48,903 nucleotides of DNA from Candidatus Scatosoma sp. (GCA_045635845.1 JAZTWL010000206.1:1-48903); one strand, 5' to 3'; counted from the first letter of the stretch, positions 3,979 to 39,259 are shown. Notes: a model not told the origin generated them from the letters alone. Numbers and translations: made by a program.

Positions 3979-4791
3979 ATGGGGGTGTGGCGTATGCGAA
4001 AAATAAAAAAACGGTATCTTTTTAGCCTACTTTCCGCTTTTTGCGCCGCCGTGATTGCCATTCTTTCTACGTGCGTATTTTGCATCGAAAAATACGGCGA
4101 AAATAGTAAAACGACGGGGGCAGGTACGAGTTTAAGCCGTTCTTTGCCCATCTATTCAGTGGAAACGGACGAGAAAAAAGTGGCGATTAGCTTCGATTGC
4201 GCGTGGGGTATAGACCACACCGACGCGCTCCTTGAAATCATGGAAAAAAACGAGATCCGCTGCACCTTTTTTGCCGTGCAGTTTTGGGTAGAGAAATACC
4301 CCGAGTACGCCAAAAAAATCGTGGATGCGGGGCACGAGCTCGGTACGCACAGTCGCACGCATCCTTATATGAGCAAGCTTTCCAAAGCGGAAATGGTGAG
4401 CGAGCTCACCACTTCGAGTGAAGCGATTGAGAAAATCACGGGCAAGAAGGTCACCCTTTTCCGCCCGCCCTACGGGGATTATAACAATCTATTGATCGAT
4501 ACTTGCGCAGAGCTTAATCTGTACCCGATTCAATGGGACGTCGATTCGTTGGATTGGAAAAATCTTTCGGGGACGGAGATTGCCATGCGGATCATCAACG
4601 GCGCGAAAAACGGCTCGATTATTCTTTGCCACAACAACGGTTTACACACGGCGGAGGCGTTGCCTATGATTTTTTCCACGCTTAAAAATCGGGGTTTTGA
4701 ATTCGTGCCGATTTCGGAGCTTATTTATAAGGACGGGTATTATATCGACCACACCGGCCGTCAGCGGCGAGCCGCCGCGGGCAAGCGGTGA
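3979..4791 (+). CDS. polysaccharide deacetylase (NodB homology domain) family protein with N-terminal TM/signal anchor
   Basis: Motifs FDCAWG..., HELGTHSRTHPYM, LFRPPYGDYN, ILCHNN. A start at ATG 3994 (MRKIKKRY) is equally possible. The last ~10 codons run into the tandem-repeat tract, so the true C-terminus is uncertain. Confidence 0.8.
   Translation: MGVWRMRKIKKRYLFSLLSAFCAAVIAILSTCVFCIEKYGENSKTTGAGTSLSRSLPIYSVETDEKKVAISFDCAWGIDHTDALLEIMEKNEIRCTFFAVQFWVEKYPEYAKKIVDAGHELGTHSRTHPYMSKLSKAEMVSELTTSSEAIEKITGKKVTLFRPPYGDYNNLLIDTCAELNLYPIQWDVDSLDWKNLSGTEIAMRIINGAKNGSIILCHNNGLHTAEALPMIFSTLKNRGFEFVPISELIYKDGYYIDHTGRQRRAAAGKR
4108..4135 (+). repeat. dispersed 28-nt repeat, copy A (type 2), inside the deacetylase CDS
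   Basis: AAAACGACGGGGGCAGGTACGAGTTTAA, translated as KTTGAGTSL. Confidence 0.6.
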
Positions 4792-4974
4792 GCCACCGCG
4801 GGCAAGTTGTAGCGTCTTTCCGCCCACTTTTAAGATAGCTCCGCGTCTGCTTCGAGTTGCGCGTACTAAACGAGTTTTTTAGGCGGTGAGCCACCACGCC
4901 CACTTGCAAGACAGCTACGCGTCTGCTTCGGGCGGCGCGTACCAAACGAGTTTTTCAAGCGGTTGGCTCTCACG
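4766..4974. repeat. tandem repeat tract: 2 x 21 bp (GGYGAGCCRCCGCGGGCAAGY) followed by 2 x ~76 bp imperfect units
   Basis: 21-mers at 4766-4786 and 4787-4807. The 76-bp units at 4823-4898 and 4899-4974 align at roughly 80% identity (CCCACTTNNAAGANAGCTNCGCGTCTGCTTCG...GCGCGTACNAAACGAGTTTTT...GGTNNGC). Confidence 0.85.
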
Positions 4975-5084
4975 GGTCAAGGGTGGAGCACCCTTGCGAA
5001 TTTTTAAGGCACAGCCTTAAAGCCCAACGGCAGTTGTCGCCCTATGGGCGAAACATAGCCCAACCATAAGCAAACGCAGTTTGC
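4961..5084. other. compact multi-hairpin domain (possible structured ncRNA or DNA-level palindromic element)
   Basis: Perfect stems: CAAGGGT-GGAGC-ACCCTTG (4978-4996), TTAAGGC-ACA-GCCTTAA (5004-5020), TCGCCC-TAT-GGGCGA (5037-5051). These are enclosed by GGTTGGCT (4961-4968) pairing with AGCCCAACC (5057-5065). A further hairpin, GCAAAC-GCA-GTTTGC, lies at 5070-5084. Confidence 0.5.
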
Positions 5085-5150
5085 GCCTTTCGCGTAGCGA
5101 TTCTCTTAATTTCATTTGTACAAAATCACTTTTGGAGGTATCAATATACT

Positions 5151-5856: not shown

Positions 5857-5878
5857 GGCGGCGAAAGCCGCCTTTTTT
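5857..5878 (+). terminator. rho-independent terminator
   Basis: GGCGGC-GAAA-GCCGCC followed by T6. Confidence 0.75.
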
Positions 5879-5881
5879 CAT

Positions 5882-5909
5882 TTCAACGCGTACATGGTAT
5901 GCCCATTTT
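5882..5909 (-). repeat. dispersed 28-nt repeat, copy B (type 1), intergenic
   Basis: Top strand TTCAACGCGTACATGGTATGCCCATTTT, directly after the terminator. Confidence 0.8.
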
Positions 5910-5928
5910 ATCATTTTTTGCAAAAAAC

Positions 5929-6697: not shown

Positions 6698-6816
6698 CCA
6701 CAAAGGAGCGTAAACGCTCCTTTTTTTCTTGAAGAAACTTTGTCCTTTTTCGTTCTAAACGGCTTGCCCACGGCATAGAATACAACGTAAGCAAAAAGCA
6801 AGTGAAGGAGAACGTT

Positions 6817-7764
6817 ATGAACGAAGAAATTGAATACGCCGAAATGCTAGAAGTACCCGTTTCCACCGTCGAAGTCACGCGCAAAACGCGCCGCCGCAAG
6901 AAACGGGATAAAGAATACGACGCCGCCCCGCTTCCGCCTTTGAAGGAAGACTTGATCGCACAAATCAACAACCGTGTGCAAGAAGCGCCCGCGCAAGAGC
7001 CCGAGACGCCGCAAATCACCGCGGATGCAAACCTTTTCACGGAAGCGGTCAATAGCGAAGGGCAAATCGACTTTGAAACGCTCGATCGGATCGATACGAT
7101 CCCCTTATTTTCCACGCCGAAAAAACGGCGTTGGTGGAAACGCCCGCGCCTATCCCCAAAGGACTTTGCATTAGACGAAACGGAAAATGAAGGTACCATG
7201 TACGAGTTGAATATGGAAAACGCCTCTTCTCGCGCCGCAAAAATTACGCTTACGGCGGAGTTTGCGCTCGCTTGCGCTTTTTGCGCGGGGATCTTTTTAA
7301 CCAACGTCTTTATGCCAAATTCGGCTATCAATACCTTCTTCCGTGCTATGAGTGAGCCCATACCCAGCGCGAAGGTGGACGATCGCACTTACGCCGATTT
7401 CACCCTTTCGCCCGTGGTTTCCGTTCTTTCGGACGCCGAGCTTTCCCTTTCTTCGACGGGCATTCTCTCTTTCACGGACGCCTGCTGCGTTTATCCGTCC
7501 GCCGACGGTAAAATTGCGCAAGTGGAACACACGGGGGAAAACGGCTACGTTGTAAAAATCGAATATTCCGATTCCTTCACGAGCGTGATTAGCGGGCTTT
7601 CCGACGTCTATTATAACGTGGGGGATCAAGCATTTGCAAATATCCCCGTCGGCTACACGGACGGCACGGGGGAAGTGCAAATGACGATGTATTCGAACGG
7701 CGAACTTTTGAATTGCTTCGAATTGACGGAAGAAAACTGTCTTGCATGGCTTGAAACGGAATAA
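6817..7764 (+). CDS. membrane protein with degenerate LytM/M23-like C-terminal domain (SpoIVFA-like by position)
   Basis: Basic N-terminus, one TM segment (ITLTAEFALACAFCAGIFLTNVF), and a C-terminus GYVVKIEYSDSFTSVISGLSDVYYNVGDQAF lacking catalytic His residues. Lies directly upstream of the spoIVFB-like M50 protease. ATG 6817 has a GAAGGAG RBS. Confidence 0.5.
   Translation: MNEEIEYAEMLEVPVSTVEVTRKTRRRKKRDKEYDAAPLPPLKEDLIAQINNRVQEAPAQEPETPQITADANLFTEAVNSEGQIDFETLDRIDTIPLFSTPKKRRWWKRPRLSPKDFALDETENEGTMYELNMENASSRAAKITLTAEFALACAFCAGIFLTNVFMPNSAINTFFRAMSEPIPSAKVDDRTYADFTLSPVVSVLSDAELSLSSTGILSFTDACCVYPSADGKIAQVEHTGENGYVVKIEYSDSFTSVISGLSDVYYNVGDQAFANIPVGYTDGTGEVQMTMYSNGELLNCFELTEENCLAWLETE
7184..7211 (+). 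repeat. dispersed 28-nt repeat, copy C (hybrid type), inside the spoIVFA-like CDS
   Basis: AAAATGAAGGTACCATGTACGAGTTGAA, translated as ENEGTMYELN. Confidence 0.7.
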
Positions 7765-7768
7765 ATTT

Positions 7769-8716
7769 ATGCAAAAACGCAACACGGTGGAGCGGCGAAA
7801 ACGCCGCTCCACTTCTTTTTTACACACCAAACCGCTTTCCATTCGTCTGCACCCGCTCTTTCTTCTCGCGGGCGTTTGGTACGCCTTCAAGGGGGAGCTT
7901 TTTCTCTTTTTTATGAGTGCGCTCGTCGCCATTCAACACGAGTGTGCTCACGCCTTTGCTAGCGCAAAACTCGGCTATAAGCTCCACAAAATTGTGCTCA
8001 TGCCCTTTGGCGCAATCATCGACGGGGATTTGCAAGGCATTTCCTTCAAGGATGAGATCTTCGTCGCCCTTTGCGGCCCGCTTTGCAACCTTTGTACCGC
8101 CTTGTTTTTTGGCGCAATTTGGTGGTTTGTGCCTACCATGTACGCGTTCACGGACACTGCGTTCTATTCTTCCGTCGCAATTGCACTCGTGAATTTACTC
8201 CCCGCCTACCCCTTGGACGGGGGAAGAATTTTGCGTTGCGCGCTCACGCGCGCACTTCTAAAATCCCGCCCGCAAGCGGAAAAAGCGGAGCGAATTGCCG
8301 ATCGGATTTGTCGTATTCTCTCCCTTCTTTTTGCTTTCGCGCTTTTATCAATCTTCGTCGCGCAAGCCGTGAAGGGTACGCCGAATCTCACCCTACTCGC
8401 CTTTTCATTGTTTTTGGGCGTGGGGGCGGTTGGCAACAAAGATAAGCTTTCCGTCTACCGCAAAATCGATTTTTCCTTGCACCGACCCATGCAAAACGGC
8501 GTGGAAATCCGTCGCGTTGCGGTGCTCGATTCGTGCACGGTAAAAACGGCGCTACGTTTTATCACGAAGGGGGCGTATCTTGTTTTGGAAATCTACGACG
8601 AAGGGGAAAATAAGCTATTCGAACTCACCCAAAACGAGCTCGCCGCACTCGTCCTGCAATCCAAGACGCCCTACGAAACTTTACGTTCTCTTTGCGAAAA
8701 TTGCAAATTTTTATAA
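7769..8716 (+). CDS. spoIVFB: M50 site-2 protease, SpoIVFB-like
   Basis: HExxH (IQHECAHAF), NLLPAYPLDGGRIL motif, multiple TM segments, C-terminal CBS-like tail. The ATG at 7769 follows the upstream stop by 4 nt. Confidence 0.8.
   Translation: MQKRNTVERRKRRSTSFLHTKPLSIRLHPLFLLAGVWYAFKGELFLFFMSALVAIQHECAHAFASAKLGYKLHKIVLMPFGAIIDGDLQGISFKDEIFVALCGPLCNLCTALFFGAIWWFVPTMYAFTDTAFYSSVAIALVNLLPAYPLDGGRILRCALTRALLKSRPQAEKAERIADRICRILSLLFAFALLSIFVAQAVKGTPNLTLLAFSLFLGVGAVGNKDKLSVYRKIDFSLHRPMQNGVEIRRVAVLDSCTVKTALRFITKGAYLVLEIYDEGENKLFELTQNELAALVLQSKTPYETLRSLCENCKFL
8131..8150 (+). repeat. dispersed repeat, partial copy D, inside spoIVFB
   Basis: GCCTACCATGTACGCGTTCA (18/20 match to the consensus core), translated as VPTMYAFT. 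Confidence 0.5.
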
Positions 8717-10399: not shown

Positions 10400-10426
10400 C
10401 CCGTCGCAAAACGCGACGGGTTTTTT
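10400..10426 (+). terminator. rho-independent terminator of rng
   Basis: CCCGTCGC-AAAAC-GCGACGGG followed by T6. Confidence 0.85.
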
Positions 10427-10429
10427 GGT

Positions 10430-10487
10430 AAAACGGGGCTACCATGTACGCGTTGAATAAAAATGGGGCTACCATGTACGCGTTGAA
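10430..10487 (+). repeat. two head-to-tail copies (E1, E2) of the dispersed repeat
   Basis: AAAACGGGGCTACCATGTACGCGTTGAA at 10430-10457, one T, then AAAAATGGGGCTACCATGTACGCGTTGAA at 10459-10487. Confidence 0.9.
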
Positions 10488-10524
10488 ATTCTTATTTTAT
10501 AAGCTTTTAGCAATCTTTTCCTTG

Positions 10525-10689: not shown

Positions 10690-12033
10690 ATGGAAGATAA
10701 TCGTCAAGTGGAAGAAGGCAGCAGCTTATTGGATATTGTCCGCCTTCTTTTGAGCAAAATTAAGTACCTTATCCTTGCCGTAATTATCGGCGGCATTTTG
10801 GGCGGTGCTTTGGCTGTGTGGAGAACGATTGACATTAACTATTTCGGCACGCGCGTAGAATTCTACGTGAACCCCGAAAAACCCGAAGAAACGACGGGCT
10901 CGTCGAGCGGCGTAGCCGCTGGCGGTAGTCAGTATGGCGTTTACGGCGCTTACGGGCAACACGTTATGGACAACATGATCCGTCTTCTTTCTTCCGAAAG
11001 CTTCGCAGAACAACTCGTTTTGAACGGCAACGTTCTTCCCGCAAAAGGAAATTATTTCTCGAGCGAAGAGAAGAACGCGGAATTCAAAGCGCTTTACGAA
11101 GCGGCAGAACCACTTTTGGTAGACGTAGCGAATAAGGAAAAGGATTACAACGCCGCATTGGAAGCAAAGGCGCAAGCGGTAAGCGATTCCAACGAAAAGC
11201 TCCGCACGTTGAACGCTGAATGGACGCCCCTTTATTTGAGCGGTCTCGTAAACAGCAGTTCGTTTAGATTGGACGAATATCTCGCTTACGAAAAAGATGG
11301 GCACACCATTCCCGACGCGTTGGAACAAGCATACCTTGCTTATAACGTAGCACAAACGAACGTTGCAAGAGAACAAACGAACGTTAGCAACACCGAACAG
11401 GCTTGGAAGTTGGCGAAAAACAAAGCTTATAAGCCCCAAACCGAAGGCGAATCGCTCGGCGCGGTGGAAAAAGTTTTAGAGCTTTGGCGCACCTCGAACT
11501 ACTACGCTTCCCAACTTTCCCGTTATAAGTCCTGCGTTTCCTATTCCTATTTGGAAAGCGCGCCCACGGACGACGACGATACGAGCAAGCTTGCTCGCTC
11601 CTTCATTTACGTAAGAATTTCGGTTTTGAATAAGGACGTAGAAGAAGGCATTAAGATCGCGGAAGACGTTCTTGCGCGCGTTAAGAAGGTTGTTCCCGTA
11701 TACGTAGAAGAAAACATGACCGTTCCCGACGGCTACGTTGGTACGAATTGCCAAAGAATTTCCCGTATGGACGGCATTCACCAAACCGACCCGAACTACA
11801 CGAAAAATCAAGCGATTAAGACGGGTATTCTTTTCGCAGGGTTCTTCTTCGTAGTGGCATGCGTAATCATTATTATCGTAGATAAATCGGATAAGCGTTT
11901 GCGTGATCACGAAGTAATCACGAGAACCTTCAACGTTCCCGTACTCGGGATCGTACCCACGATCGATGAACTCGCGGCAGAATCTCACGCCAAGAAAAAA
12001 GGTGTGAATAAAAACAAAACGGAGGTGAAATAA
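10690..12033 (+). CDS. Wzz/CpsC-type polysaccharide co-polymerase (chain-length determinant) with a long extracytoplasmic domain
   Basis: N-terminal Wzz signature SLLDIVRLLLSKIKYLILAVIIGGILGG, a ~330-aa helical ectodomain, and a C-terminal TM ILFAGFFFVVACVIIIIV followed by the kinase-activating tail. Confidence 0.8.
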   Translation: MEDNRQVEEGSSLLDIVRLLLSKIKYLILAVIIGGILGGALAVWRTIDINYFGTRVEFYVNPEKPEETTGSSSGVAAGGSQYGVYGAYGQHVMDNMIRLLSSESFAEQLVLNGNVLPAKGNYFSSEEKNAEFKALYEAAEPLLVDVANKEKDYNAALEAKAQAVSDSNEKLRTLNAEWTPLYLSGLVNSSSFRLDEYLAYEKDGHTIPDALEQAYLAYNVAQTNVAREQTNVSNTEQAWKLAKNKAYKPQTEGESLGAVEKVLELWRTSNYYASQLSRYKSCVSYSYLESAPTDDDDTSKLARSFIYVRISVLNKDVEEGIKIAEDVLARVKKVVPVYVEENMTVPDGYVGTNCQRISRMDGIHQTDPNYTKNQAIKTGILFAGFFFVVACVIIIIVDKSDKRLRDHEVITRTFNVPVLGIVPTIDELAAESHAKKKGVNKNKTEVK

Positions 12034-12035
12034 TT

Positions 12036-12857
12036 ATGGGATTCTTCTCTAAATTTTTCCGTAAACGTCGCGATAACAAGCACGCACATAGAACGCACCG
12101 CTCGCATAGAGCAGAATATTTGTTGGACGAAAAAACCCCCTTCGACGTCACCGAAGCTTTCCGTAATTTGAAAGCGGCAATCTCCGTTTCCGTACCCAAA
12201 AAGGACGGCGGCGTTGCTATTATGATGACGTCTGCATACCCCGAAGACGGCAAAACGACGGTCACGGCAAATCTTGCTTTAATGTTCGCTCTTTCGGACG
12301 CAAAGGTTATCTTGATCGACGCCGACATTCGTAAAGGCCGCGTAGCAAAGTATTTCAAGCGCAAATCCGCGCCCGGTCTTTCCGACTATCTCTCTGGTCA
12401 AAACACTTTGGAAGAAGTTGTGCACCACTCGCACGTGAACGAAAACCTTTCGTATATCACCTGCGGTACGCACTCGCCGAAGCCCTACGAACTTTTGGAA
12501 AGCGAAGAAATGAAGAAGCTCTTGGAAGAGCTTCGTAAGACGTACGATTATATCATTATCGATACGCCACCCGTACTTCTTCTTTCCGACGCGTTGGCGC
12601 TCGCGCCCATCACGGACGGCACGGCTCTTGTTTGCCGCCACCAAGTTTCTTATATTAGCGACATTTCCCGCGCGCTTAACACCTTGAACTTCGCAAAAGC
12701 GAACGTACTCGGCGTAATCGTAAACGACTATAAAGCACCCAAGACGGCGAAGTACGGCGGCTACGGCTACGGCAAAAAATACTATTATTATTCCTATTCC
12801 TACGGCTCTACCGATCCCAAAGAAACGGACGACGAATCCCAAGAAACGGAAGAATAA
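12036..12857 (+). CDS. CpsD/CapB-family bacterial tyrosine kinase (BY-kinase)
   Basis: Walker A SAYPEDGKTT, A' VILIDADIRKG, B DYIIIDTPP, and a C-terminal Tyr cluster YGGYGYGKKYYYYSYSYG. Confidence 0.9.
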   Translation: MGFFSKFFRKRRDNKHAHRTHRSHRAEYLLDEKTPFDVTEAFRNLKAAISVSVPKKDGGVAIMMTSAYPEDGKTTVTANLALMFALSDAKVILIDADIRKGRVAKYFKRKSAPGLSDYLSGQNTLEEVVHHSHVNENLSYITCGTHSPKPYELLESEEMKKLLEELRKTYDYIIIDTPPVLLLSDALALAPITDGTALVCRHQVSYISDISRALNTLNFAKANVLGVIVNDYKAPKTAKYGGYGYGKKYYYYSYSYGSTDPKETDDESQETEE

Positions 12858-16104: not shown

Positions 16105-16109
16105 AGAAT

Positions 16110-16139
16110 AGCCCCGCCCGAAATCGGGCGGGGCTTTTT
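16110..16139 (+). terminator. rho-independent terminator of engB
   Basis: AGCCCCGCCCG-AAAT-CGGGCGGGGCT followed by T5. Confidence 0.9.
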
Positions 16140-16157
16140 CATAAAAACGCAACCTAA

Positions 16158-16193
16158 AAAACCAAAAGGCTTTCCCGAAGGAAAGCCTTTTTT
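16158..16193 (-). terminator. rho-independent terminator of rqcH
   Basis: Reverse strand reads AAAGGCTTTCC-TTCG-GGAAAGCCTTT followed by a T-rich tract. Confidence 0.8.
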
Positions 16194-16194
16194 C

Positions 16195-20124: not shown

Positions 20125-20138
20125 TCCCCGATTTTTCC

Positions 20139-23965: not shown

Positions 23966-23968
23966 TAT

Positions 23969-26031: not shown

Positions 26032-26034
26032 GTA

Positions 26035-26755: not shown

Positions 26756-26796
26756 AGTGTCACTATTATAGCACGATTCGAAAAGAAAAGCAACTT

Positions 26797-27061
26797 TTTT
26801 CCACAAGTTGGTGTATAAAGTTGTCCACAGGTTGATAACTTTTGTGGATAACCGTTTATTTTGTATAATTATACACTCTTTGTTTTTATTTATGTATTTG
26901 CTATTTTTAGGGGGTTGGGAATAACTTCCACAATTCCACAAATCTTCCACAAAGTTATCCACACTGTAAACATGGGTTGTCCACAGCTTGGTAAAGTCTA
27001 TTTTTACTAGGAATATAAAGGGTTTGCGGGAACGAAAAATTGGGTTATCCACCTTTCCACA
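26797..27061. other. oriC-type DnaA-box cluster 1
   Basis: Perfect boxes TGTGGATAA (26843-26851) and TTATCCACA (26955-26963). One-mismatch boxes at 26797, 26821, 26977 and 27045, plus several TTCCACA-type weak boxes. An AT-rich tract lies at 26856-26910. Confidence 0.8.
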
Positions 27062-27105
27062 CGCCCTACTACTAATACTACTTTTTTAATTTAATAAATA
27101 ACAAG
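27062..27105. other. origin unwinding module: GC cluster, DnaA-trio-like CTA repeats, AT-rich DUE
   Basis: CGCC (27062-27065), then CTA CTA CTA ATA CTA CTT (27066-27083), then TTTTTTAATTTAATAAATAACAA. It lies immediately after the boxes TTATCCACC/TTTCCACA. The box, GC cluster, trio, DUE order matches the described basal unwinding system. Confidence 0.7.
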
Positions 27106-27169
27106 ACAGGAATCGGGAGTGGGTGAAGGAATTTTTTGGACTTTGGACAAAAAATATGGCAGTCCGCGC

Positions 27170-27197
27170 TTGACAAAACGCAAAGCTGTGCTATAAT
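27170..27197 (+). promoter_or_regulatory. sigma-A type promoter (TTGACA-16-TGc-TATAAT)
   Basis: TTGACA at 27170-27175 and TATAAT at 27192-27197, upstream of the SLOG gene. Confidence 0.6.
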
Positions 27198-27252
27198 AGG
27201 ACGTACGGAATTTCTTATAAATAAGAAAGCGCCAAAAAAAAGGAGGACGGGT

Positions 27253-27741
27253 ATGGAACAACTGACGATCACCTATCACAACGCAATAAAATCCTGCGCG
27301 TTCACCGGGCATAGGACGCTTGAGAAGGATTTTTCCCCGAAATTACTCAAAAAATACGTGCTTGCACTCATAAGTGACGGCGTGGACGTTTTTTATAGCG
27401 GTATGGCGCTCGGGTTTGATTTGATTGCGGCGGAAACGGTGCTTTCCTGCAAGAAAAAATTTCCAAATATTCGTTTGATCGCTTGTATTCCCCACTACGG
27501 ACAAGAAGCGCGCTATTCGGAAAAAGACAAGGCTCGCTATGCAAAGATTTTGAAAAAAGCGGACGAGCAGGTGTTGCTATCCGAAGAATTTACGAAAAAT
27601 TGCTACATGGATAGAAACCGCTATATGGCGGATCGGGCGGACGTGCTTGTGGCGTATTTGAAACAGAAGACGGGCGGCACGGCTTACACGGTAAAGTATT
27701 TCCAAAAAAAGAAACCCTTAAACCGTGTTGTTTTCGTATAA
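27253..27741 (+). CDS. SLOG-family DUF1273 (YpsA-like) protein
   Basis: CAFTGHR...VDVFYSGMALGFDLIAAE...IRLIACIPHYGQEARYSEKDKARY...YMDRNRYMADRADVLVAY...GGTAYT. AAGGAGG RBS at ATG 27253. Confidence 0.8.
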   Translation: MEQLTITYHNAIKSCAFTGHRTLEKDFSPKLLKKYVLALISDGVDVFYSGMALGFDLIAAETVLSCKKKFPNIRLIACIPHYGQEARYSEKDKARYAKILKKADEQVLLSEEFTKNCYMDRNRYMADRADVLVAYLKQKTGGTAYTVKYFQKKKPLNRVVFV

Positions 27742-27801
27742 AAAAGGTTGTGAAAAAAATAAAAAAATCCCTTAATTCAAAGGTTTTGCGCTCGTTTTTG
27801 C

Positions 27802-27830
27802 TTGCAAAAAAAAACGGCGTATGGTACAAT
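27802..27830 (+). promoter_or_regulatory. sigma-A type promoter for dnaN (TTGCAA-17-TGg-TACAAT)
   Basis: TTGCAA at 27802-27807 and TACAAT at 27825-27830. Confidence 0.55.
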
Positions 27831-27887
27831 GGATAGGAAACTAAACGGTTTTTCAATTTATTGAAAAAGCAAGGAGAGAAAAAGACT

Positions 27888-28997
27888 ATGAAATTTATTT
27901 GCGACGGTATGATTTTGGCGGATGCTTCTTTGACGGTAAGCAAGGCTTGCGCTGTTAGAACGACCACTCCTATTTTGGAATGCATCAAATTGAAAGCGGA
28001 AAACGACGGTCTTACGCTCACGGCGTACGACGGCGAAATTTCCATTGAAAAGAAGATTTTGGCGGACGTTTTGGAAGAAGGCGAACTTTGCGTTGCCGGC
28101 AAGACGTTTGCGGATTTCGTGAACAAAATTTCCGCATTCGAAGTGACGATTGCATCGGATGAAGCGGGTATCTTTATCCGTTATACGGATAGCGAAACGT
28201 ATATGCAAACCCTTTCCGCGGAAGATTACCCCAAATTCAACGTTTCGGATAATGCGGACAAGGACTACTTCACGATGAAGGAAAACGTACTTAAGGATAT
28301 CATTTCCAAGATCGTATTCTGCTGTGCGACGGATGAATCCCGTCCCATCTTGAAAGGCGCGCTTTTGGAAACGAAGAGCGGCAAACTCAACGTAGTTGCT
28401 TTGGATGGCGTGAGAATGGCTTGCGCGACCTGCGATATTGAAGAAAGCAGCGTGGATATGAAGATCGTATGCCCCGCAAGAACGCTTACGGAAATTTCCC
28501 GTATGCTTGACGGCGAAAACGACATTAAAATTTACGCGAGCAAGAATATGCTTTCCGTAGAAGTGCAAAACACGGTAATCAATTCCCGTTTGTACGCAGG
28601 CGAATTCGTAAAGAAGGAAAATATTTTCCCGATCGACTTCACGACGAAAGTGATTTTGAATAGAGCGGACGTGATCGAAAGTTTGGAACGTGCTTCCGTC
28701 ATGATTAGAACGGATAAAAATAATCTCGTATTGCTTGATATCAAACCCGGCAAGATCGTACTCACGGCAAACTCGGGTATGGGCAAGGTAGAAGAAACGA
28801 TTTCCGCGGAGCTTGACGGTAAGGAATTGAAGATTGCTATGAACGGTAAATTCTTGCTTGACGCAGTGAAAGCGCTCGAAGAAGAACAAGTGATTGCATC
28901 CTTCAATACGTCCGTTTCCCCCTTCACGCTTGAAAACATGGAGGACAAGGCTTGTCAATATTTGATTTTGCCTATGAGAACGAGAGCGGTAGAGTAA
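27888..28997 (+). CDS. dnaN: DNA polymerase III beta sliding clamp
   Basis: MKFICDGMILADASLTVSKA...PILECIKLKAENDGLTLTAYDGEISIE, with three-domain clamp length. AAGGAGAG RBS. Confidence 0.96.
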   Translation: MKFICDGMILADASLTVSKACAVRTTTPILECIKLKAENDGLTLTAYDGEISIEKKILADVLEEGELCVAGKTFADFVNKISAFEVTIASDEAGIFIRYTDSETYMQTLSAEDYPKFNVSDNADKDYFTMKENVLKDIISKIVFCCATDESRPILKGALLETKSGKLNVVALDGVRMACATCDIEESSVDMKIVCPARTLTEISRMLDGENDIKIYASKNMLSVEVQNTVINSRLYAGEFVKKENIFPIDFTTKVILNRADVIESLERASVMIRTDKNNLVLLDIKPGKIVLTANSGMGKVEETISAELDGKELKIAMNGKFLLDAVKALEEEQVIASFNTSVSPFTLENMEDKACQYLILPMRTRAVE

Positions 28998-29060
28998 GAA
29001 AAAAAACGCCAAAAAAGGGATAAAAACGCGTGGTAAACGAGAAAAACGGCGTGAAAACGC

Positions 29061-29090
29061 TTGACGGACTTCGTCGCTATGCGGTATAAT
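29061..29090 (+). promoter_or_regulatory. sigma-A type promoter for rpmH (TTGACG-18-TATAAT)
   Basis: TTGACG at 29061-29066 and TATAAT at 29085-29090. Confidence 0.6.
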
Positions 29091-29169
29091 ATGAAAGTTG
29101 TCCGCGCTGAAAGCGTGGCGGCGCATAAATAACGAAAAAAAAGATAAAAAACCATATAGGAGAAAAATC

Positions 29170-29304
29170 ATGAAAAGAACCTATCAACCCAAAAAGAGAC
29201 AAAGAAGCAAAGTACACGGTTTCCGTAAGAGAATGGCAACGACGGCTGGCAGAAAGGTGCTTAAGAGACGTAGAGCAAAAGGCCGTAAGAGACTTACGCA
29301 CTAA
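29170..29304 (+). CDS. rpmH: 50S ribosomal protein L34
   Basis: [44 protein letters not shown]. Confidence 0.97.
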
Positions 29305-29413
29305 TTAACTGAAAATAAAAAGTACAAATTCCTTTCCTTGGCATCAAGGAGAGGATTTGCCATTTTTTTATGACCGTAGGGATTTTGGAAACAAAAGCTC
29401 TCAAAGAGAAAAA

Positions 29414-29731
29414 ATGAAGTATTTAAGATTAAAAAAACAAGCGGATTTTCAAAGACTTTTCAAAAACGGAAAGCGCGCGTTTACCCCTTCTTTGACCGTA
29501 ATCTACCGTCCATCCGATAAGATGCGAATGGGAATTTCTATCGGGAAGAAGCATGGCAAAAGCGTGCAGAGAAACCGTATCAAAAGATTGATCCGAGAAG
29601 CCTTCCGTTTGACACAAGGAGAAATGAAGGGCGCGTATTCCTTCTTGCTCATTCCAAAGGTGAGCGAAGAATACTCTTTCAAAACCTTTCAATCGCAACT
29701 TCAATGGATGATTCGAAAAGAGAAGCTGTAA
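29414..29731 (+). CDS. rnpA: ribonuclease P protein component
   Basis: MKYLRLKKQADFQRLFKNGKR...GKKHGKSVQRNRIKRLIREAFR. Confidence 0.9.
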   Translation: MKYLRLKKQADFQRLFKNGKRAFTPSLTVIYRPSDKMRMGISIGKKHGKSVQRNRIKRLIREAFRLTQGEMKGAYSFLLIPKVSEEYSFKTFQSQLQWMIRKEKL

Positions 29732-29757
29732 GCGGATATTTCGCGGGGCTTTGCCGC

Positions 29758-30030
29758 GTGAATTTTAAGTATCTTCGCAAGATTATTTTTAAGCCGTACT
29801 TGAAAATAATTTGTATGCGAATGATCCGCTTTTATCAAAAGTATATTTCCAAAAATACTTGCAAATACGTTCCTTCTTGTTCGCAGTACACGATGGAATG
29901 TATCAATAATAAAGGGGTAATTCTAGGCATTTTGCTTGGCGCTTGGCGCATTTTACGGTGCAATCCTTTATCCAAAGGCGGGTACGATCCCGCGCCTTTG
30001 CCCTATTTCAAAAAAAGATGGCTTTTGTGA
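29758..30030 (+). CDS. yidD: membrane protein insertion efficiency factor YidD
   Basis: IRFYQKYIS...CKYVPSCSQYTMECI...LGAWRILRCNPLSKGGYDP. The start is ambiguous: GTG 29758 or ATG 29815. Confidence 0.85.
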   Translation: MNFKYLRKIIFKPYLKIICMRMIRFYQKYISKNTCKYVPSCSQYTMECINNKGVILGILLGAWRILRCNPLSKGGYDPAPLPYFKKRWLL

Positions 30031-30087
30031 TTTGACAAAGATAATAACCGCGTGAAAAACGCAAAAAATATAGTTTAGGAAAGTGGC

Positions 30088-31635
30088 GTGCGAGTTCTCG
30101 TGCGCTCAATTGAAAAAATGGGAAGTTTAAATATTCAAGACGTCTTTCTTCCCCTTTACGGGCAAACGTTTGACGTTTCATTGAACTGGATAGGCAACTT
30201 AATTCGCATACTCATTAGCGGAGTAGGCGTAGTTGGTGTGGGCGTTATTCTGTTCTCTTTGATTTTGAAGGGTATTACCCTTCCCCTTGATATTTATCAA
30301 AGAGTTTCCATGCGTAAACAAAACAACCGCATGAAAGAAAACAAAGACAGAATGGAAAAATTAAAGAAGCAATACGCGAACGACGAAAAGCTCTATAACC
30401 AAAAGGTTATGGAAATGCAACGCGAAGGCGGTTTTTCCGTGCTCTCCGCGTGCTTGCCTATGATCGTTTCGTTGATTATCTTTATCGTTGCGATTAACGC
30501 ATTTAACGCATACGCACAGTATTCCAACGTAAAAAATTATAACACGCTCGTGAACGCGTATAACGAACAATTCTACGAATACACGCCTGAATTCACGGAA
30601 GATACTTTCGAAATTACCAAACAAGAAACGAAGTATGATGCAGACAACGTCGTAGAAGAAATCACGGTAGAATTCAAGGTTTCCGACGACGTTGCGGATA
30701 ACTATATCTACTACACGGGCTCGTACACGGTAGAAAAAGAAGACGTTGCAAAATATGAAGCTTTAATGAGCGACGCTGAAACGGCTTTTGAAACGCAAAA
30801 ATCGTACGTAGAGCTTGCAAGAAAAATGTACTTTGCGGACGTAGAAAAAATCAAAAACTGCACGGATTCGGAAATGATCGCGCAAATTAACGCGCATTAC
30901 GACGAGCTTGCAAATGCGGATTTGACGAACGACGCTAAAATGGAAAATGCAATCCGTAACTATTTCCGTGCGCAAGCGCAAAAGGCCGTAAAAGTAGCGT
31001 ACCAAACGAAGGTTTCCAAGGATACGAAGTTCCTTTGGATTAAGAATATTTGGTCGGTTGACGCAAGCTATAAGCACCCCGTATTAAGTTATTCCGCTTT
31101 CAAATCCGAAGCAAAGCAAGAAAAGTTTAAGGTGGAAGGTGAAGGCAAGGTTTCCTACGGGAATATCGATACCTACACCGACGCATACAAGGAAGAAGCG
31201 TATAACGATATCACGAAAGAATTATCCACGTATAAGAAGCAACCGAACGGTTATTTTATCATGATCGCCCTTTCGATCGGTACGATTTTGCTTCAACAAG
31301 TGGTGATGCAACATTCGCAAAAGGAACAACAAAAATACCAAACGGTGGACGGTCAAGGTAAGGGCCAAGGCAAAATGATGATGATCATTATGACGGGTAT
31401 GTTCGCGATCTTCTCGTTCATGTACAGCTCGGCATTCTCGATCTACATGATCACGAGCAACTTGTTCTCCATGATATCGACTTTGGTAATCAATTTCTTC
31501 GTAGATAGAAGCGCATCGAAGAAGGAAGCGCTTGCAACGGAAAAGCGTTTTGCAAACACGGCGATCGATAGAGTAGAAAAGGCAAAACAAGCAGGTATTG
31601 CATCTGCGGATAAGAAACGTAATAAGAATAAATAA
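30088..31635 (+). CDS. yidC: YidC/Oxa1-family membrane insertase with a large internal insertion
   Basis: Conserved TM1 with KGITLPLDIYQRVSMRK, coiled coil, GGFSVLSACLPMIVSLIIF, and the C-terminal TM bundle MMIIMTGMFAIFSFMYSSAFSIYMITSNLFSMIST. About 240 extra residues lie between TM2 and TM3. The GTG 30088 start has an AGGAAAG SD; ATG 30118 is an alternative. Confidence 0.8.
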   Translation: MRVLVRSIEKMGSLNIQDVFLPLYGQTFDVSLNWIGNLIRILISGVGVVGVGVILFSLILKGITLPLDIYQRVSMRKQNNRMKENKDRMEKLKKQYANDEKLYNQKVMEMQREGGFSVLSACLPMIVSLIIFIVAINAFNAYAQYSNVKNYNTLVNAYNEQFYEYTPEFTEDTFEITKQETKYDADNVVEEITVEFKVSDDVADNYIYYTGSYTVEKEDVAKYEALMSDAETAFETQKSYVELARKMYFADVEKIKNCTDSEMIAQINAHYDELANADLTNDAKMENAIRNYFRAQAQKAVKVAYQTKVSKDTKFLWIKNIWSVDASYKHPVLSYSAFKSEAKQEKFKVEGEGKVSYGNIDTYTDAYKEEAYNDITKELSTYKKQPNGYFIMIALSIGTILLQQVVMQHSQKEQQKYQTVDGQGKGQGKMMMIIMTGMFAIFSFMYSSAFSIYMITSNLFSMISTLVINFFVDRSASKKEALATEKRFANTAIDRVEKAKQAGIASADKKRNKNK

Positions 31636-31679
31636 GAGAGAATTGCGCCACGCGTAGGCGCGGACGTAGGAGTAAAATA

Positions 31680-32615
31680 ATGAATTACACGGAATTTACG
31701 GGAAAGACGGTGGCGGAAGCCATTGAAAAGGGCTTGAAAGAGCTTGGAATCACCGAAGAACAAGCGGATATCCGCGTTTTGGAAGAAGGCAAGAAAAAGC
31801 TTTTCGGTTCGGTGAAAGCGCGCGTTGAAATCGCTGCAAAATGCGAAGAATGCGCAAAGGAAGAATGCGTAGAAGAAAAGTGCTGCCCCGCTGTTTGCTG
31901 CAACGGTACGGACGGCGAAAGAACGGTGGCGTTCTTGGAAGGTTTGTTCGAGCTCTTGAATATCAAGGCTTGCACGGAGCTTGTTTCGGAAGGCGAAAAG
32001 ATTGAAATCAACGTGACGACGGCAAATACGACGTCGGTTATCGGTAAAAAAGGCGCAACGCTTGATGCAATTCAAACGCTTGCAAGCGCTGTTGGCAACA
32101 CGGGCAGAGACGATTACAAGCGCGTAGTGGTTGACTGCGACAACTATCGTGAAAGCCGTGAAAACACGTTGAACAAGCTTGCGGAAAACTTGGCGCAAAA
32201 AGCAATTCGTATGGGCAAGAAGATTATGCTTGAACCCATGAATCCTTACGAAAGAAGAATTATTCACGCGGCTCTTTCCGAAAGAGAAGGTATTTCCACG
32301 GAAAGCGAAGGCAAAGAACCGAACCGCTATTTCGTGATTATTCCCGATAATTTGGAAGATCCCGATGCACCCGCAATTCCTGCAAGAAACGATCGTGAAC
32401 GTCGCGGCGGTAGAAACGATAGATCGCACGGCCGTGGCGGCAAGGGCGGTTTTAACCGCGGTAGCAACGGCAAACGCGGTGGTTTCGGCGGTAAAAAGCC
32501 TTACAACCGTGATAGAAAGCCCGCAACCGGCGCAACCGGTGGCACGTCCTTGAAGACGTCGAATGATTTCTTCGGTATCTTCCTTGGCAACAGCGGAAAT
32601 AACAGCGAAGAATAA
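31680..32615 (+). CDS. khpB: RNA-binding protein Jag/KhpB (Jag_N, KH, R3H) with a Cys-rich insert and an RGG-rich tail
   Basis: N-terminus MNYTEFTGKTVAEAIEKGLKELGI. KH IGKKGATLDAIQ. R3H MNPYERRIIHAAL. Confidence 0.85.
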   Translation: MNYTEFTGKTVAEAIEKGLKELGITEEQADIRVLEEGKKKLFGSVKARVEIAAKCEECAKEECVEEKCCPAVCCNGTDGERTVAFLEGLFELLNIKACTELVSEGEKIEINVTTANTTSVIGKKGATLDAIQTLASAVGNTGRDDYKRVVVDCDNYRESRENTLNKLAENLAQKAIRMGKKIMLEPMNPYERRIIHAALSEREGISTESEGKEPNRYFVIIPDNLEDPDAPAIPARNDRERRGGRNDRSHGRGGKGGFNRGSNGKRGGFGGKKPYNRDRKPATGATGGTSLKTSNDFFGIFLGNSGNNSEE

Positions 32616-32683: not shown

Positions 32684-33211
32684 TTATTGCAAAAAGCGGA
32701 CGTTGCGCTGAATACGTTTTAACGAGAAATACGTAGGCACGCCGAGTGCGTACACCCAAACGCATTCCGTTAAGGCAAGCGAGCCAACAAAAGCGAAATA
32801 CGCCGTCCAAACACTAGAATAACCCGCGCCGCCATCACAAAGAAAGACGATAATAAAAGGGATAAAAAGCGAGTTAAAAAGTACGGGGAAAAATCCGCCA
32901 AGCCCCACTTTTAACGGCTCGTTTTTAATTTTTCTGCCTACCATGTACGTAGCGAGCGCGGCAAACAGCGTTGCAAGCGAGCCGATAAAGACGTCGTACA
33001 CAAGATAGGGCGAAGCCAAATTCGAAAGCATACACCCCACGTACAGCGCGGGCACGGCTTCTACGTAAAGTAGAGGCAAAATACAAAGCGCCTCTGCCGG
33101 TCGGATTTGAAAAGGGCCGAAGGCAAAGGGCGTGAATGCATAGGTGAACGCGACGTAAAGCGCGGCAATAATACCCGCGCGGCAAAGCCGCTTCGTAGTG
33201 ACGTTTTTCAT
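32684..33211 (-). CDS. queT: QueT-family queuosine-precursor transporter (ECF S-component-like)
   Basis: Starts at MKNVTTKRLCRAGIIAALYVAFTYAFTPFAFGPFQIRPAEAL. Five or six TM segments. The upstream part of the track ORF is leader sequence. Confidence 0.75.
   Translation of the reverse strand: MKNVTTKRLCRAGIIAALYVAFTYAFTPFAFGPFQIRPAEALCILPLLYVEAVPALYVGCMLSNLASPYLVYDVFIGSLATLFAALATYMVGRKIKNEPLKVGLGGFFPVLFNSLFIPFIIVFLCDGGAGYSSVWTAYFAFVGSLALTECVWVYALGVPTYFSLKRIQRNVRFLQ
32936..32949 (+). repeat. dispersed repeat, partial core only (copy L), antisense inside queT
   Basis: GCCTACCATGTACG, a 14-mer identical to copy D. Confidence 0.35.
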
Positions 33212-33323: not shown

Positions 33324-33980
33324 TTACGCGCCCTGTCGCTTTTTTGAGCAACGTTCCCAAAGCAGGGCGGCAATTCCGTCCGAAAGGATTTCCGCCATGG
33401 TATAGACCAAATTTAGACGGGTGCTATTCAAGAGTCCGTAATTCGCCACTGATTTTTCCGCCACGATCCCGAGCGCGGAAACGTCCCCGAGCGCACCGAG
33501 TTTTTTTTGCGCACCTGCGCCCGGTTTTAGCGGGGAATCGGAAAGCTTTATCAAGCCGATATCCCCTTCTTCCCCAACGGCGGCGTCCACGGTGAGCACT
33601 TGACTTTCGGTGTGGGTATCCCGCAAAAGCGCGCGCACGTACTTAATCTCTTTGGCGGTGACGGGGGATGCGAGTGTGCCGTAGATAAAAACGTTCAAGC
33701 CCTGCGTTTTATAGCGGAGCATAGAGCCGGTGATCGGCCCAAGACTATCCCCGATCACGAGATCACTACCCACACAAACAATCACGGGTGGAGCGTCGAA
33801 AAGAGGGTGATTTTGCGGTGAACTCGTACATGCCCCCTTCATTTTTTGTGTTTTGCGGTAAAAATCGCGTTTTAAGAGTCGGTCAAGAGATAGAGAAACG
33901 CCGTCGGCGGCGAGTTTATTAAAGACGTGAAAAGCATAATCCATAGTGGGATAAGTATTGCCGAAAGGGGCGTTTTTCAA
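33324..33980 (-). CDS. yyaC: spore protease YyaC (DUF1256, GPR/HybD-like)
   Basis: VIVCVGSDLVIGDSLGPITG...VLTVDAAVGEEGDIGLIKLSDSPLKPGAG. The start is uncertain: TTG 33980, ATG 33944, or the ATG inside repeat copy M. Confidence 0.8.
   Translation of the reverse strand: MKNAPFGNTYPTMDYAFHVFNKLAADGVSLSLDRLLKRDFYRKTQKMKGACTSSPQNHPLFDAPPVIVCVGSDLVIGDSLGPITGSMLRYKTQGLNVFIYGTLASPVTAKEIKYVRALLRDTHTESQVLTVDAAVGEEGDIGLIKLSDSPLKPGAGAQKKLGALGDVSALGIVAEKSVANYGLLNSTRLNLVYTMAEILSDGIAALLWERCSKKRQGA
33819..33845 (-). repeat. dispersed repeat, copy M (type 2), inside the yyaC 5' region
   Basis: Top strand TGAACTCGTACATGCCCCCTTCATTTT, translated as KMKGACTSS. Confidence 0.65.
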
Positions 33981-37746: not shown

Positions 37747-37770
37747 GATAAAAATTCCTTAAGTTTTTAA

Positions 37771-37798
37771 TTCAACGCGTACATGGTGGGTGTATTTT
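37771..37798 (-). repeat. dispersed 28-nt repeat, copy N (type 1 variant), between gerAA stop and gerAB start
   Basis: Top strand TTCAACGCGTACATGGTGGGTGTATTTT, abutting the gerAA TAG. Confidence 0.8.
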
Positions 37799-39259
37799 CT
37801 ATTTTTCCTTCAAACGGGTGTAGTTTTTTGATTGTAAAACGGATGGGCGTTTATCTAAATCAGACATGTCATATTTTACGATTGTATCTCGCAAATCGTG
37901 TGTTTTTAAGGGGGAGAAGGGCGCAAGTAAAGGCGCGCCGAAGCTATCTGCTGTGATAAGGTAATATAATAGAAAAGTGAGTAAAAGGACGATGCCGAAC
38001 GGGCCGATGCTCCCCGCAACGAGCAGGAAAAGCCAACGGAGTACGCCGCCCGTTTCCACGAAGGAAGGAACGGTGTACAAACAAATACCCGAGAAGGCGA
38101 CGATAATGATAGCGGGGGTAGAAAGGAAACCCGCGGAAACCGCCGTTTCGCCGAGTACGAGCGCGCCGACGACGGAAAGACTCATGCCGACGTATTTCGG
38201 CATACGCACACTCGCTTCTTTTAGCACTTCGAGCAAAAATAGCACGACGAACATTTCCAAATTCGGGGAAAGGGGCAATTCGCGGACGCTGCTTGCGATT
38301 GTGAGCATTAATCCGAGTGGCAAAAGCTGCATTTTGAAAAGCTGTGCCGAGACGTAAAACGCGGGCAAAAGAATCGCGACGAATAAGGCAAGTAGGCGCA
38401 AAAAGCGGAAAGTCGTGGAAACGAAGGGGGAATGGAAATAGTCTTCGCTGCTTTGTAAGCCTTCCGTTAAAAGGTAGGGGGCGGTGAGTGCAATCGGCGA
38501 ACCGTCCACCAAAATCCCCACCCTGCCTTCCATGATTTTTGCGCAAAAAATATCCGGCTTTTCCGTCGTGCCGAGCGTATGGAAAAGGGAATGCTTGCGC
38601 TCGGAAATTAGCGCGGAAATATAGGAAGAATCGGGGAGATAATCGACGTCGATTTTTTGAATGCGCGCCTTAATCTCGTCAAGCACGTCTTCGTTGCTCG
38701 TTCCCGACAAATAACAAAGCGTAACGGCGGTATCCGAGCGACGGCCAACCCGCATGGTTTCAAAACGCAGCTCGGGGGTTTTGAGTCGTTTACGAACGAG
38801 CGACATGTTCGTTTTAATATCTTCGATAAAGCCTTCTCTCGGGCCTTTCACGGCAATATCTGTCGGCGGCTCGGCAACAGAGCGGACGGGCAAAAGCTTT
38901 GCGCCCACGATAAAGCCCGTGGAGAGTTCGTCCACGAGTAAAAGACTATTTCCGTCCAAGATTTCCTTAATGGAATCCGCAATTTTTTCCACCGTTTTTA
39001 ATTCGGGAAAAAGCAGGGATTTTTTCAAGTTTTCTTCATTCAACGCGTACCTGCCCCCGTCATTTTTTGCAAAAAGTCGGGAAAGGGGGCGGGCAATAAG
39101 GTCACCGAGTACTTCTTTATTCACCACCCCGTCGGCATAGACGATCGCGCACGAAACGCCGTCTTCCGTTTGGAAGTCGTAGGTTAAAACGTCTTCGGAA
39201 GGAAGGAGTTTTTTGAGTTCCGTCAAATTTTTTTGTAAGCTTTTAGAGAAAACGTTCAC
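37799..39259 (-). CDS. GerAA-family spore germination protein
   Basis: 486 aa. VRSVAEPPTDIAVKGPREGFIEDIKTNMSLVRKRL is the hallmark GerA motif. C-terminal TM bundle. Confidence 0.9.
   Translation of the reverse strand: MNVFSKSLQKNLTELKKLLPSEDVLTYDFQTEDGVSCAIVYADGVVNKEVLGDLIARPLSRLFAKNDGGRYALNEENLKKSLLFPELKTVEKIADSIKEILDGNSLLLVDELSTGFIVGAKLLPVRSVAEPPTDIAVKGPREGFIEDIKTNMSLVRKRLKTPELRFETMRVGRRSDTAVTLCYLSGTSNEDVLDEIKARIQKIDVDYLPDSSYISALISERKHSLFHTLGTTEKPDIFCAKIMEGRVGILVDGSPIALTAPYLLTEGLQSSEDYFHSPFVSTTFRFLRLLALFVAILLPAFYVSAQLFKMQLLPLGLMLTIASSVRELPLSPNLEMFVVLFLLEVLKEASVRMPKYVGMSLSVVGALVLGETAVSAGFLSTPAIIIVAFSGICLYTVPSFVETGGVLRWLFLLVAGSIGPFGIVLLLTFLLYYLITADSFGAPLLAPFSPLKTHDLRDTIVKYDMSDLDKRPSVLQSKNYTRLKEK
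39039..39066 (-). repeat. dispersed 28-nt repeat, copy O (type 2), inside gerAA
   Basis: Top strand TTCAACGCGTACCTGCCCCCGTCATTTT, translated as KNDGGRYALNE. Confidence 0.8.

Follow-up and report, generated by a model that had tools for sequence, protein, structure and literature searches.

How does the same short nucleotide sequence come to be translated as part of several different proteins, and what keeps it there? The question is raised by a 48,903-nucleotide (nt) stretch of Candidatus Scatosoma sp. DNA (GCA_045635845.1, JAZTWL010000206.1:1-48903), here called the window, in which a 28-nt motif occurs both between and within genes. An earlier note on this DNA had reported that the motif is embedded in frame, always in the sense orientation and in two reading frames, in the genes for a deacetylase, a SpoIVFA-like protein, SpoIVFB, an EamA protein, YyaC and GerAA, and had suggested either orientation-specific insertion or selection at the mRNA level. 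The six in-frame sense copies were confirmed by Pfam matches and translation (the one in spoIVFB being partial), as was the use of two frames. We find that the conserved unit is the nucleotide sequence, kept at the nucleotide level across species, and that motif copies arise and persist in place and are not insertions. The reading that we tentatively place first is that the motif acts as a recognition word in double-stranded DNA, of the type of the uptake signal sequences (USS) and DNA uptake sequences (DUS) of naturally competent bacteria, accumulating and persisting in place; the binding site of some other chromosomal protein is ranked second.

The consensus of the motif in the window is AAAA(T/C)G-N7-CCAK-GTACGCGTTGAA, with 13 clear copies and two to three weak ones (Table 1). 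An nhmmer profile built from the clear copies recovered all 13 with E values between 1.6e-11 and 1e-6, and matched weakly at three further places. Allowing one mismatch at most, the window contains 11 matches to the 12-nt core GTACGCGTTGAA, whereas dinucleotide-preserving shuffles predict 0.44; none of 100 shuffles reached this number. A logo was made from 67 copies, namely those of the window and copies elsewhere that do not match the search pattern given below. It shows a purine-rich, asymmetric 28-nt unit in two blocks: an A4 block, a loose spacer of 7–8 nt and a 16-nt core, CCAK-GTACGCGTTGAA. The spacer is of the type GGGGCAG, (C/G/A)TACCAT or CACCCAT, and weak A-runs flank the unit on both sides. 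Head-to-tail pairs with an exact 30-nt period are found at about eight sites. The density is 1 per 3.8 kb in the window, which is origin-proximal, and about 1 per 9.5 kb around tatD, at loci chosen without regard to the motif.

Judged by eye, the core CATGTACGCGT (for example, window positions 10441–10452) is an unbroken run of alternating purines and pyrimidines with the overlapping palindromes CATG, GTAC, CGCG and ACGCGT; sequences of this kind are flexible and have a tendency to form Z-DNA. A sub-variant, GGGGCAG-GGTTGCGTTGAA (TAC to GTT; read as ..GGRVALN.. in GerAA), recurs at seven loci from other genomes (L126, L035, L059, L085, L109, L120 and L121). Both recognisable copies in L126 (10321 and 15575) are of this type, with no canonical copy in 21.6 kb, which may reflect a dialect or decay in that species; as a motif dialect, the sub-variant recurs yet is too sparse to call.

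The motif is characteristic of one lineage of gut Clostridia, in which it is strongly over-represented. When 185,579 species, each represented by a single genome, were scanned with the pattern AAAATG-N7-C-NN-GTACGCGTTGAA, which has 19 fixed bases, at least 112 loci were found. The 80 matches listed span 29 different metagenome-assembled genome (MAG) assemblies, and among these 80 all but one come from MAGs of Candidatus Scatosoma or of unclassified Clostridia/Clostridiales; the sole outlier is an unrelated Flavobacterium. The motif-bearing MAGs derive from the gut of human, chicken, roe deer, sheep and water deer. At least 29 species have an identical consensus, even though their synonymous sites are saturated. 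A literature search for the motif sequence returned nothing relevant, the papers that mention Scatosoma being taxonomic or survey work, and Rfam holds no family for it (its matches in the window are two tRNAs only). Synteny with the window extends to many of the loci retrieved, at 70–85% nucleotide identity; closer relatives (82–93% identity) were added through contigs fetched with ClpX, GerAA and TatD homologues.

Constraint acts on the nucleotides. The earlier note had argued from the two reading frames that the nucleotide element and not a peptide is the conserved unit, and this is borne out by the two frames, by copies in both orientations and by the retention of the rare codons AGG, GGG and TTA. 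Where the frame is ..ATG TAC GCG.., AGG (5% usage) is the only Arg codon found in the copies and GGG (16%) the only codon for the first Gly. In the ..GGT ACG.. frame the consensus TTGAA would introduce an in-frame TGA, and neither of the two copies read in this frame retains it: the deacetylase copy has TTTAA and the yyaC copy TTCAC. The clearest case is TatD, in which a full-length antisense copy lies in the segment ..ECVQRVPAxxILSETD... The codons GTT CAA CGC (G/A)TA CCT GCx ... ATT TTA are common to eight species whose proteins are about 70% identical; five of these species were picked by protein homology without regard to the motif, and neighbouring codons vary synonymously outside the motif. 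CGC is kept in all eight (p=1e-4), and TTA, which makes up 13% of Leu codons, in seven of the eight (p=4e-6). This antisense copy is kept as firmly as the sense copies. A reading as a peptide motif was rejected, given the rare codons together with two frames and two orientations. Outside TatD, the copy in the spoIVFA-like gene is retained in all five orthologues while the linker flanks diverge freely and the motif spacer alternates between the GGGGCAG and TACCAT types, and orthologous intergenic copies are 85% identical in the motif compared with 75% in the 45-nt flanks.

All six in-gene copies of the window recur at equal positions in other species (Table 1), and the earlier note had called them insertions, proposing that host proteins be aligned with orthologues in search of a lineage-specific addition. 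Such alignments speak against insertion. The GerAA loop aligns without gaps to Bacillus megaterium GerK3A (PDB 6O59), which already reads ..QKNDLNDQNALE.. (K-N-D) at this place; the K-N/K-E/D-G-G-R/M... peptide is present in most of 120 GerAA orthologues, and the few within the lineage that lack the motif are 4–6 residues shorter there, not 10. The motif stretch of SpoIVFB is shorter, not longer, than in MJ0392 and in Bacillus subtilis SpoIVFB. The TatD segment, which is conserved, is ungapped against Staphylococcus aureus TatD (PDB 2GZX), and in release factor 1 (RF1) a core copy, also antisense, is written in the universal peptide VQRVPA, within an ungapped, conserved segment. Thus, no added length relative to distant homologues was seen in GerAA, SpoIVFB, TatD or RF1. 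A PDB search returned no homologue of YyaC.

The comparison between genomes gives the same picture. Every window copy at 10–31 kb is kept at the equal place in three relatives (L113, L115 and L117; 82–93% identical), and no gain or loss of the motif was found among genomes of this identity. Differences in the presence of intergenic copies occur only between distant species with unalignable flanks (for example, at 5882 and 20153). No insertion signature accompanies the copies: terminal inverted repeats and target duplications are absent, and similarity does not extend beyond 28–30 nt.

These observations bear on the possibility that the copies are ancient, now immobile remnants of a tiny non-autonomous element resembling repetitive extragenic palindromic (REP) sequences, miniature inverted-repeat transposable elements (MITEs) or Rickettsia palindromic elements (RPEs), which spread early with a preference for gene ends; its in-gene copies would be old in-frame insertions or short ectopic gene-conversion tracts. 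As with REPs, their bacterial interspersed mosaic elements and REP-associated tyrosine transposases (RAYTs), and with MITEs, the motif is short (about 30–35 nt for those elements), present in many copies just downstream of genes, and has a consensus common to related species; such an element would account for the preference for gene 3' ends and terminator regions, for the presence differences between more distant species, for the exact 30-nt tandem duplications and for a 1.2-kb cassette in L113 that is flanked by direct repeats of motif plus terminator (described below). Single-strand transposition of the IS200/IS605 type also produces a replication-relative strand bias. However, REPs are imperfect palindromes, strictly extragenic and mobilised as hairpins, whereas the motif is not palindromic, lies inside genes in both orientations and shows neither insertion signature nor recent turnover; just about 5–9% of copies can fold into a hairpin, for which they need a separate arm further downstream. 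Similarly, RPEs resemble the motif in being translated as part of their host genes, in frame and at tolerant surface or linker positions, but they are palindromic insertions of 100–150 bp that add residues, unlike a 28-nt motif whose host proteins have gained no length. An element of this kind would moreover have to keep an identical consensus across at least 29 species despite synonymous saturation, and the strand bias lies within the composition prediction given below. No RAYT or insertion sequence (IS) transposase was found among the annotated neighbours on pieces of 8–21 kb, although no search was aimed at transposases. We therefore regard a remnant element as unlikely. Among other over-represented genomic words, HIP1 (GCGATCGC) of cyanobacteria also accumulates in place, including inside genes, and is kept where orthologues carry it, its function not being settled; it is a palindrome of 8 nt, whereas the motif is 28 nt long, asymmetric and in two blocks.

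Placement relative to genes was analysed with genes called by our own codon-usage scorer, by which some genes were missed (83% coding). There were 188 profile matches, of which 147 are intergenic, 29 in genes in the sense orientation and 12 in genes in the antisense orientation. Collapsing orthologous copies by flank similarity left 123 independent sites: those between co-directional genes are 40 sense and 18 antisense (31% antisense), those inside genes 14 sense and 5 antisense (26% antisense), and 19 sites lie between convergent and 5 between divergent genes. Normalised to the amount of intergenic DNA, sites are 2.1-fold enriched between convergent genes and 3.7-fold depleted between divergent ones (p=2.5e-5). 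In the loci selected by the pattern, most sites fall between genes, concentrated just past stop codons and near terminators. Sense intergenic copies stand about 10–30 nt from the upstream stop codon, which is often itself part of the A-rich 5' end of the motif, and many of them lie between stop codon and terminator. About 40–50% of intergenic sites adjoin a terminator, and at 9 of 97 the motif itself is the left arm of the terminator hairpin (in L047, for example, GGGCAGGTACGCG-TTGAA-CGCGTACCTGCCC followed by a T-run). In-gene copies, in either orientation, occupy tolerant loops, linkers and N-termini, or segments with a compatible peptide. Those in antisense sit in bona fide genes by Pfam, encoding SpoIIE, a rhamnosidase, TatD, RF1 and a YetF-like protein.

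The claim that in-gene copies are always in the sense orientation holds in the window (six of six) but not lineage-wide, as 5 of the 19 independent in-gene sites are antisense. What remains is an excess, and its size follows from base composition. The consensus strand is purine-rich, and coding strands contain 27.8% A, 24.4% T, 26.0% G and 21.8% C; the regionally G-rich strand is also A- and G-rich, more so between genes. We scored the motif matrix under these strand compositions. The genome-wide strand-bias count that the earlier note had called for, made on the 123 independent sites, mostly in pattern-selected loci, does yield a sense excess inside genes (14 to 5), but this share (74%) is no larger than the composition expectation of 77%. 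Outside genes, 66 of 83 sites (80%; 66 to 17) are on the G-rich strand compared with 76–82% predicted, and between convergent genes, where local transcription cannot set a preference, 16 of 19 are. None of the orientation counts departs from the composition prediction, and six sense copies of six in one window have a probability of 0.21 under a share of 77%. The sense excess is thus best read as a by-product, because the purine-rich motif strand fits the purine-rich coding or leading strand. The codons point the same way: sense copies encode loops rich in K, N, E and G, their A-rich flanks giving hydrophilic Lys, Asn and Glu, and antisense copies encode F/L/I-rich or V-Q-R-V-P strings at places where such a peptide suits (a SpoIIE membrane segment, TatD and RF1). 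Copies in the window are oriented with the local gene and not with the GC skew, in agreement with codability being the rule inside genes. The 'always sense' pattern can therefore arise from base composition alone.

Since composition predicts the orientation bias, neither of the two processes suggested earlier is needed. Orientation-specific insertion finds no support in view of the antisense share of sites inside genes and between co-directional genes, and the bias is no larger than composition predicts. Selection on the mRNA fares no better. One could imagine a cis-acting mRNA element, such as a stability or processing signal in the 3' untranslated region, the site of an RNA-binding protein or a small-RNA target, and the sense orientation of 11 of the 13 clear window copies relative to local genes, together with the many sense copies between stop codon and terminator and the stop codons within the A-rich 5' end, would suit it. 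Against this stand the antisense sites just mentioned, the antisense TatD copy kept in eight species, antisense intergenic copies that are kept too and a sense excess within composition expectation. Eight copies were folded, with z-scores from -2.6 to +2.5 and structures that differ between copies, and no Rfam family matches. We consider an RNA element very unlikely. A shared RNA structure or hairpin was likewise rejected, as the eight copies have no common fold and no more than a few percent of copies have a complementary arm.

The preference for the G-rich strand might also be taken for a polar chromosome-maintenance signal, read one way relative to replication as are Chi or the FtsK-orienting polar sequences (KOPS) and SpoIIIE recognition sequences (SRS). 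The 80% of extragenic sites on the G-rich strand, including those between convergent genes, would be expected of such a signal; a density of 1 per 4–10 kb resembles that of Chi in Escherichia coli, and by eye the commonest spacer, GGGGCAGG, resembles KOPS GGGNAGGG. However, the skew is what composition predicts, and a replication-polar signal was rejected on this ground. Known polar signals are 5–8 nt in length, many motif copies have TACCAT or CACCCAT in place of the G-rich spacer, and the orientation of window copies is that of the local gene and not of the GC skew. There is, in our judgement, hardly any chance that the motif acts in this way.

Other candidates were tried and set aside. A seven-codon mini open reading frame (ORF; ATG-N18-TGA, MxxxxTR*) was rejected: conservation of its ATG is weak (information contents of 0.55 and 0.86), several copies having ACG or ATA instead, a Shine-Dalgarno sequence is lacking, and copies in antisense are conserved. 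Promoters of the sigma-70, sigma-H, sigma-G or extracytoplasmic function (ECF) type, compared by eye in both orientations, do not fit in spacing or hexamers, and the motif is depleted between divergent genes. The R' box of integron attC sites (GTTRRRY, matched by GTTGAAT) and an integration host factor (IHF)-like core carry too little information and have the wrong layout.

Because orientation relative to genes is irrelevant for retention, the word is probably read on double-stranded DNA by a protein. Such a protein could simply be an abundant, lineage-specific chromosomal DNA-binding protein, with each site under ordinary selection; it might organise the nucleoid, anchor or capture the chromosome in sporulation, or relieve supercoiling where genes end, or the sites might signal recombination or repair. 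Orientation-independent retention and nucleotide constraint inside genes are both consistent with this, the layout of an A-tract and a 16-nt core is typical of a protein footprint, and tandem pairs at 30 nt would set two proteins on about the same face of the helix. The higher density in the origin-proximal window than around tatD and the 2.1-fold enrichment between convergent and 3.7-fold depletion between divergent genes would also fit. On the other hand, known chromosome-organising sites (parS, NBS, ram, matS and RBM) are short and for the most part palindromic, with tens of sites rather than hundreds, and there is no evident reason for selection to keep such a site in TatD or GerAA in every species. 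We consider a chromosomal protein of this kind somewhat improbable, if less so than a remnant element.

The combination of properties described above, namely over-representation, origin and maintenance in place, nucleotide constraint in both orientations, preference for gene ends with avoidance of promoter regions, and the lack of a hairpin, of an insertion signature and of recent turnover, has only one well-understood precedent, the USS of Pasteurellaceae and the DUS of Neisseriaceae. In those bacteria, a competence receptor prefers word-bearing DNA, and recombination of the preferred DNA drives the accumulation and conservation of the word. Uptake signals favour one orientation inside genes and are biased to gene ends (PMC2346458); they are placed at residues of low conservation, the frame following codon preference (PMC2817400); they are better conserved than their flanks (97% compared with 85%) and reside in permissive core regions (PMC2397512); and inverted pairs of them form terminator stems (81% in Neisseria meningitidis; PMC1852404). 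The motif resembles them in being a lineage-specific word with a consensus common to many related species, in having many copies between and inside genes, in that its in-gene copies stand at permissive positions without added length and with one orientation favoured, and in that orthologous copies are better conserved than flanks. Some motif copies likewise pair with an inverted partner as terminators, and the arrangement of a core with A/T-rich flanks is also that of the extended USS, at about 30 nt.

Several points weigh against a USS/DUS-like word. The host is a Gram-positive, spore-forming anaerobe, and to our knowledge uptake specificity is not known in any Gram-positive bacterium. The motif core of 16 nt plus the A4 block is longer than DUS (10–12 nt) and the USS core (9 nt), and copies occur at about 1 per 4–10 kb as opposed to about 1 per kb. 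The tandem pairs at about eight sites and the repeats around the L113 cassette are more easily explained by a duplicating or recombining element than by a drive acting on point mutations. The lack of any match in 2.9 million viral contigs, also with a looser pattern, is in line with such a word, but weakly so, as phages of the lineage may be unsampled there. Frequencies and distributions were derived from the window and from pieces of 8–21 kb, and most loci entered the analysis through an exact consensus match, which inflates apparent conservation and leads to under-counting of degenerate in-gene copies. Finally, the motif serves as a terminator arm at about 9% of intergenic sites, far below the 81% of N. 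meningitidis (PMC1852404).

The copies in the window are collected in Table 1. Six to seven of 15 (about 40%) lie inside genes. For the EamA copy, the motif ATG is in frame, and whether the copy is embedded therefore depends on the start codon. Start-codon calls vary among orthologues, one gene caller having started at the motif in L115 (299 compared with 319 residues), and the motif ATG may be the true start of EamA. The antisense match in queT that had been noted earlier (about 32937–32949) is present but not significant (nhmmer E=3.3).

Table 1. Motif copies in the window, with their setting and their occurrence at equivalent places in other genomes (L numbers).
Copy	Position	Strand	Setting	Peptide (frame)	nhmmer E	Other genomes
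Deacetylase	4099-4154	+	gene 3979-4791; linker between N-terminal membrane helix and Polysacc_deac_1 domain (Pfam, translation)	KTTGAGTSL (..GGT ACG..)	1.6e-8	equal position in 6/7 other species (L022, L027, L061, L064, L078, L092; not L039)
Intergenic	5864-5916	-	antisense to both flanking + genes; in its own orientation followed by A-tract, then terminator hairpin		6.6e-11	kept in L035, L092; missing at five other syntenic loci
spoIVFA-like	7178-7229	+	gene 6802-7764; immediately ahead of membrane helix	NEGTMYELN (..ATG TAC GCG..)	1.7e-11	L022, L027, L035, L078, L103
spoIVFB, partial	8130-8151	+	gene 7742-8716; CTACCATGTACGCGTT; only 16-22 nt match, without AAAATG block; loop between membrane segments	PTMYAFT	0.003	4/5 (L022, L035, L078, L103; not L039)
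Tandem pair	10423-10492	+	downstream of RNase E/G gene and terminator; 30-nt period		5.7e-9, 2.2e-9	L117, L118, L035
rqcH/NFACT, weak	16360-16397	-	sense, near 3' end of gene 16195-17913; degenerate		0.0064	weak match at equivalent place in L118
clpP-clpX spacer	20130-20174	+	sense		5e-10	kept in L113, L115, L117, L119, L046; missing in L071
EamA 3' end	21511-21561	-	between convergent genes, terminator hairpin next		9.6e-7	kept in L046, L071, L113, L115, L117; hairpin sequence differs (entirely so in L115)
EamA 5' end	22418-22466	-	gene 21546-22505	KNGATMYALNE	1.6e-11	2/2: intact in L071, decayed in L046
Intergenic	23952-24006	-	antisense to flanking + genes, adjoins two-way terminator		7.7e-11	L113, L117, L046
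Weak match	24998-25023
rsmG/gidB	26021-26070	-	just 3' of gene 26063-27052, then terminator		3.7e-10	89-96% identity in L113, L115, L117, L046
yyaC (DUF1256)	33799-33852	-	between N-terminal helix and conserved core	KMKGACTSS (..GGT ACG..)	2.2e-9	intact at equal position in L125; degenerate and 5 residues shorter in L126
gerAA-gerAB spacer	37758-37807	-	begins at gerAA stop codon		1.7e-8	L056, L125; in L126 genes overlap, no copy
gerAA	39027-39074	-	gene 37799-39259; loop of N-terminal domain, within Pfam GerA match	KNDGGRYALNE	1.9e-10	3/3 other species

At the 3' end of the EamA gene, L113 (91–93% nucleotide identity) carries between clpX and EamA, at 11250–12590 and corresponding to window 21487–21552, a 1.2-kb cassette of two genes, for a Zn-ribbon protein and a helix-turn-helix (HTH) regulator. 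It is bounded by a direct repeat of about 66–70 nt that consists of a motif copy and a terminator hairpin; in the window there is one copy only, and the cassette is absent. The motif is not involved in a second indel between the window and L113 (window 16105–16195).

Several further features of the window were noted. Its position near the replication origin is indicated by rsmG/gidB (- strand), ypsA, dnaN, rnpA, yidD, yidC and jag (26063–32615), with a change in the sign of the GC skew at about 24–28 kb; there is no dnaA beside dnaN, rpmH-rnpA-yidC run in the same direction as dnaN, and lon, tig, clpP, clpX and rng, which lie to the left of the skew switch, would then run head-on to replication. 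Between the deacetylase stop codon and a gene with a single-stranded-DNA-binding (SSB) domain lie two tandem 76-nt units, 80% identical (4821–4972, + strand), which adopt a similar nested-stem fold on the + strand with z-scores that are not significant and no Rfam match. Two ORFs on the + strand, of 1277 residues (42073–45906) and 447 residues (10690–12033), have good coding scores and no Pfam match; the latter is directly upstream of a gene for a ParA/MinD-like ATPase and is kept in relatives. The exact sequence of the RNase G protein returned no database record. Finally, two tRNA genes are located at the right-hand end (48598–48813, - strand).

The motif is a clean taxonomic marker, suited to binning and to the assignment of contigs to the lineage, and a ready probe for pull-down or DNA affinity purification sequencing (DAP-seq). 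For annotators, the conserved and oddly coded peptides KNxGGRYALN and VQRVPA..IL in these proteomes are imposed by DNA and not by protein function. The broadest claim, which we advance with considerable doubt, is that the motif represents the first uptake-signal-like self-DNA tag in Gram-positive bacteria, or another genome-wide recognition of a 28-nt two-block word, in spore-forming gut Clostridia, with a drive that would fix codons of tatD and shape loops of GerAA, SpoIVFA and YyaC. If the motif is indeed a tag read on DNA, a widespread, uncultured group of gut Clostridia would possess an undescribed system of protein–DNA recognition; one option is sequence-biased natural transformation, which would bear on recombination and on the exclusion of foreign DNA in these bacteria.

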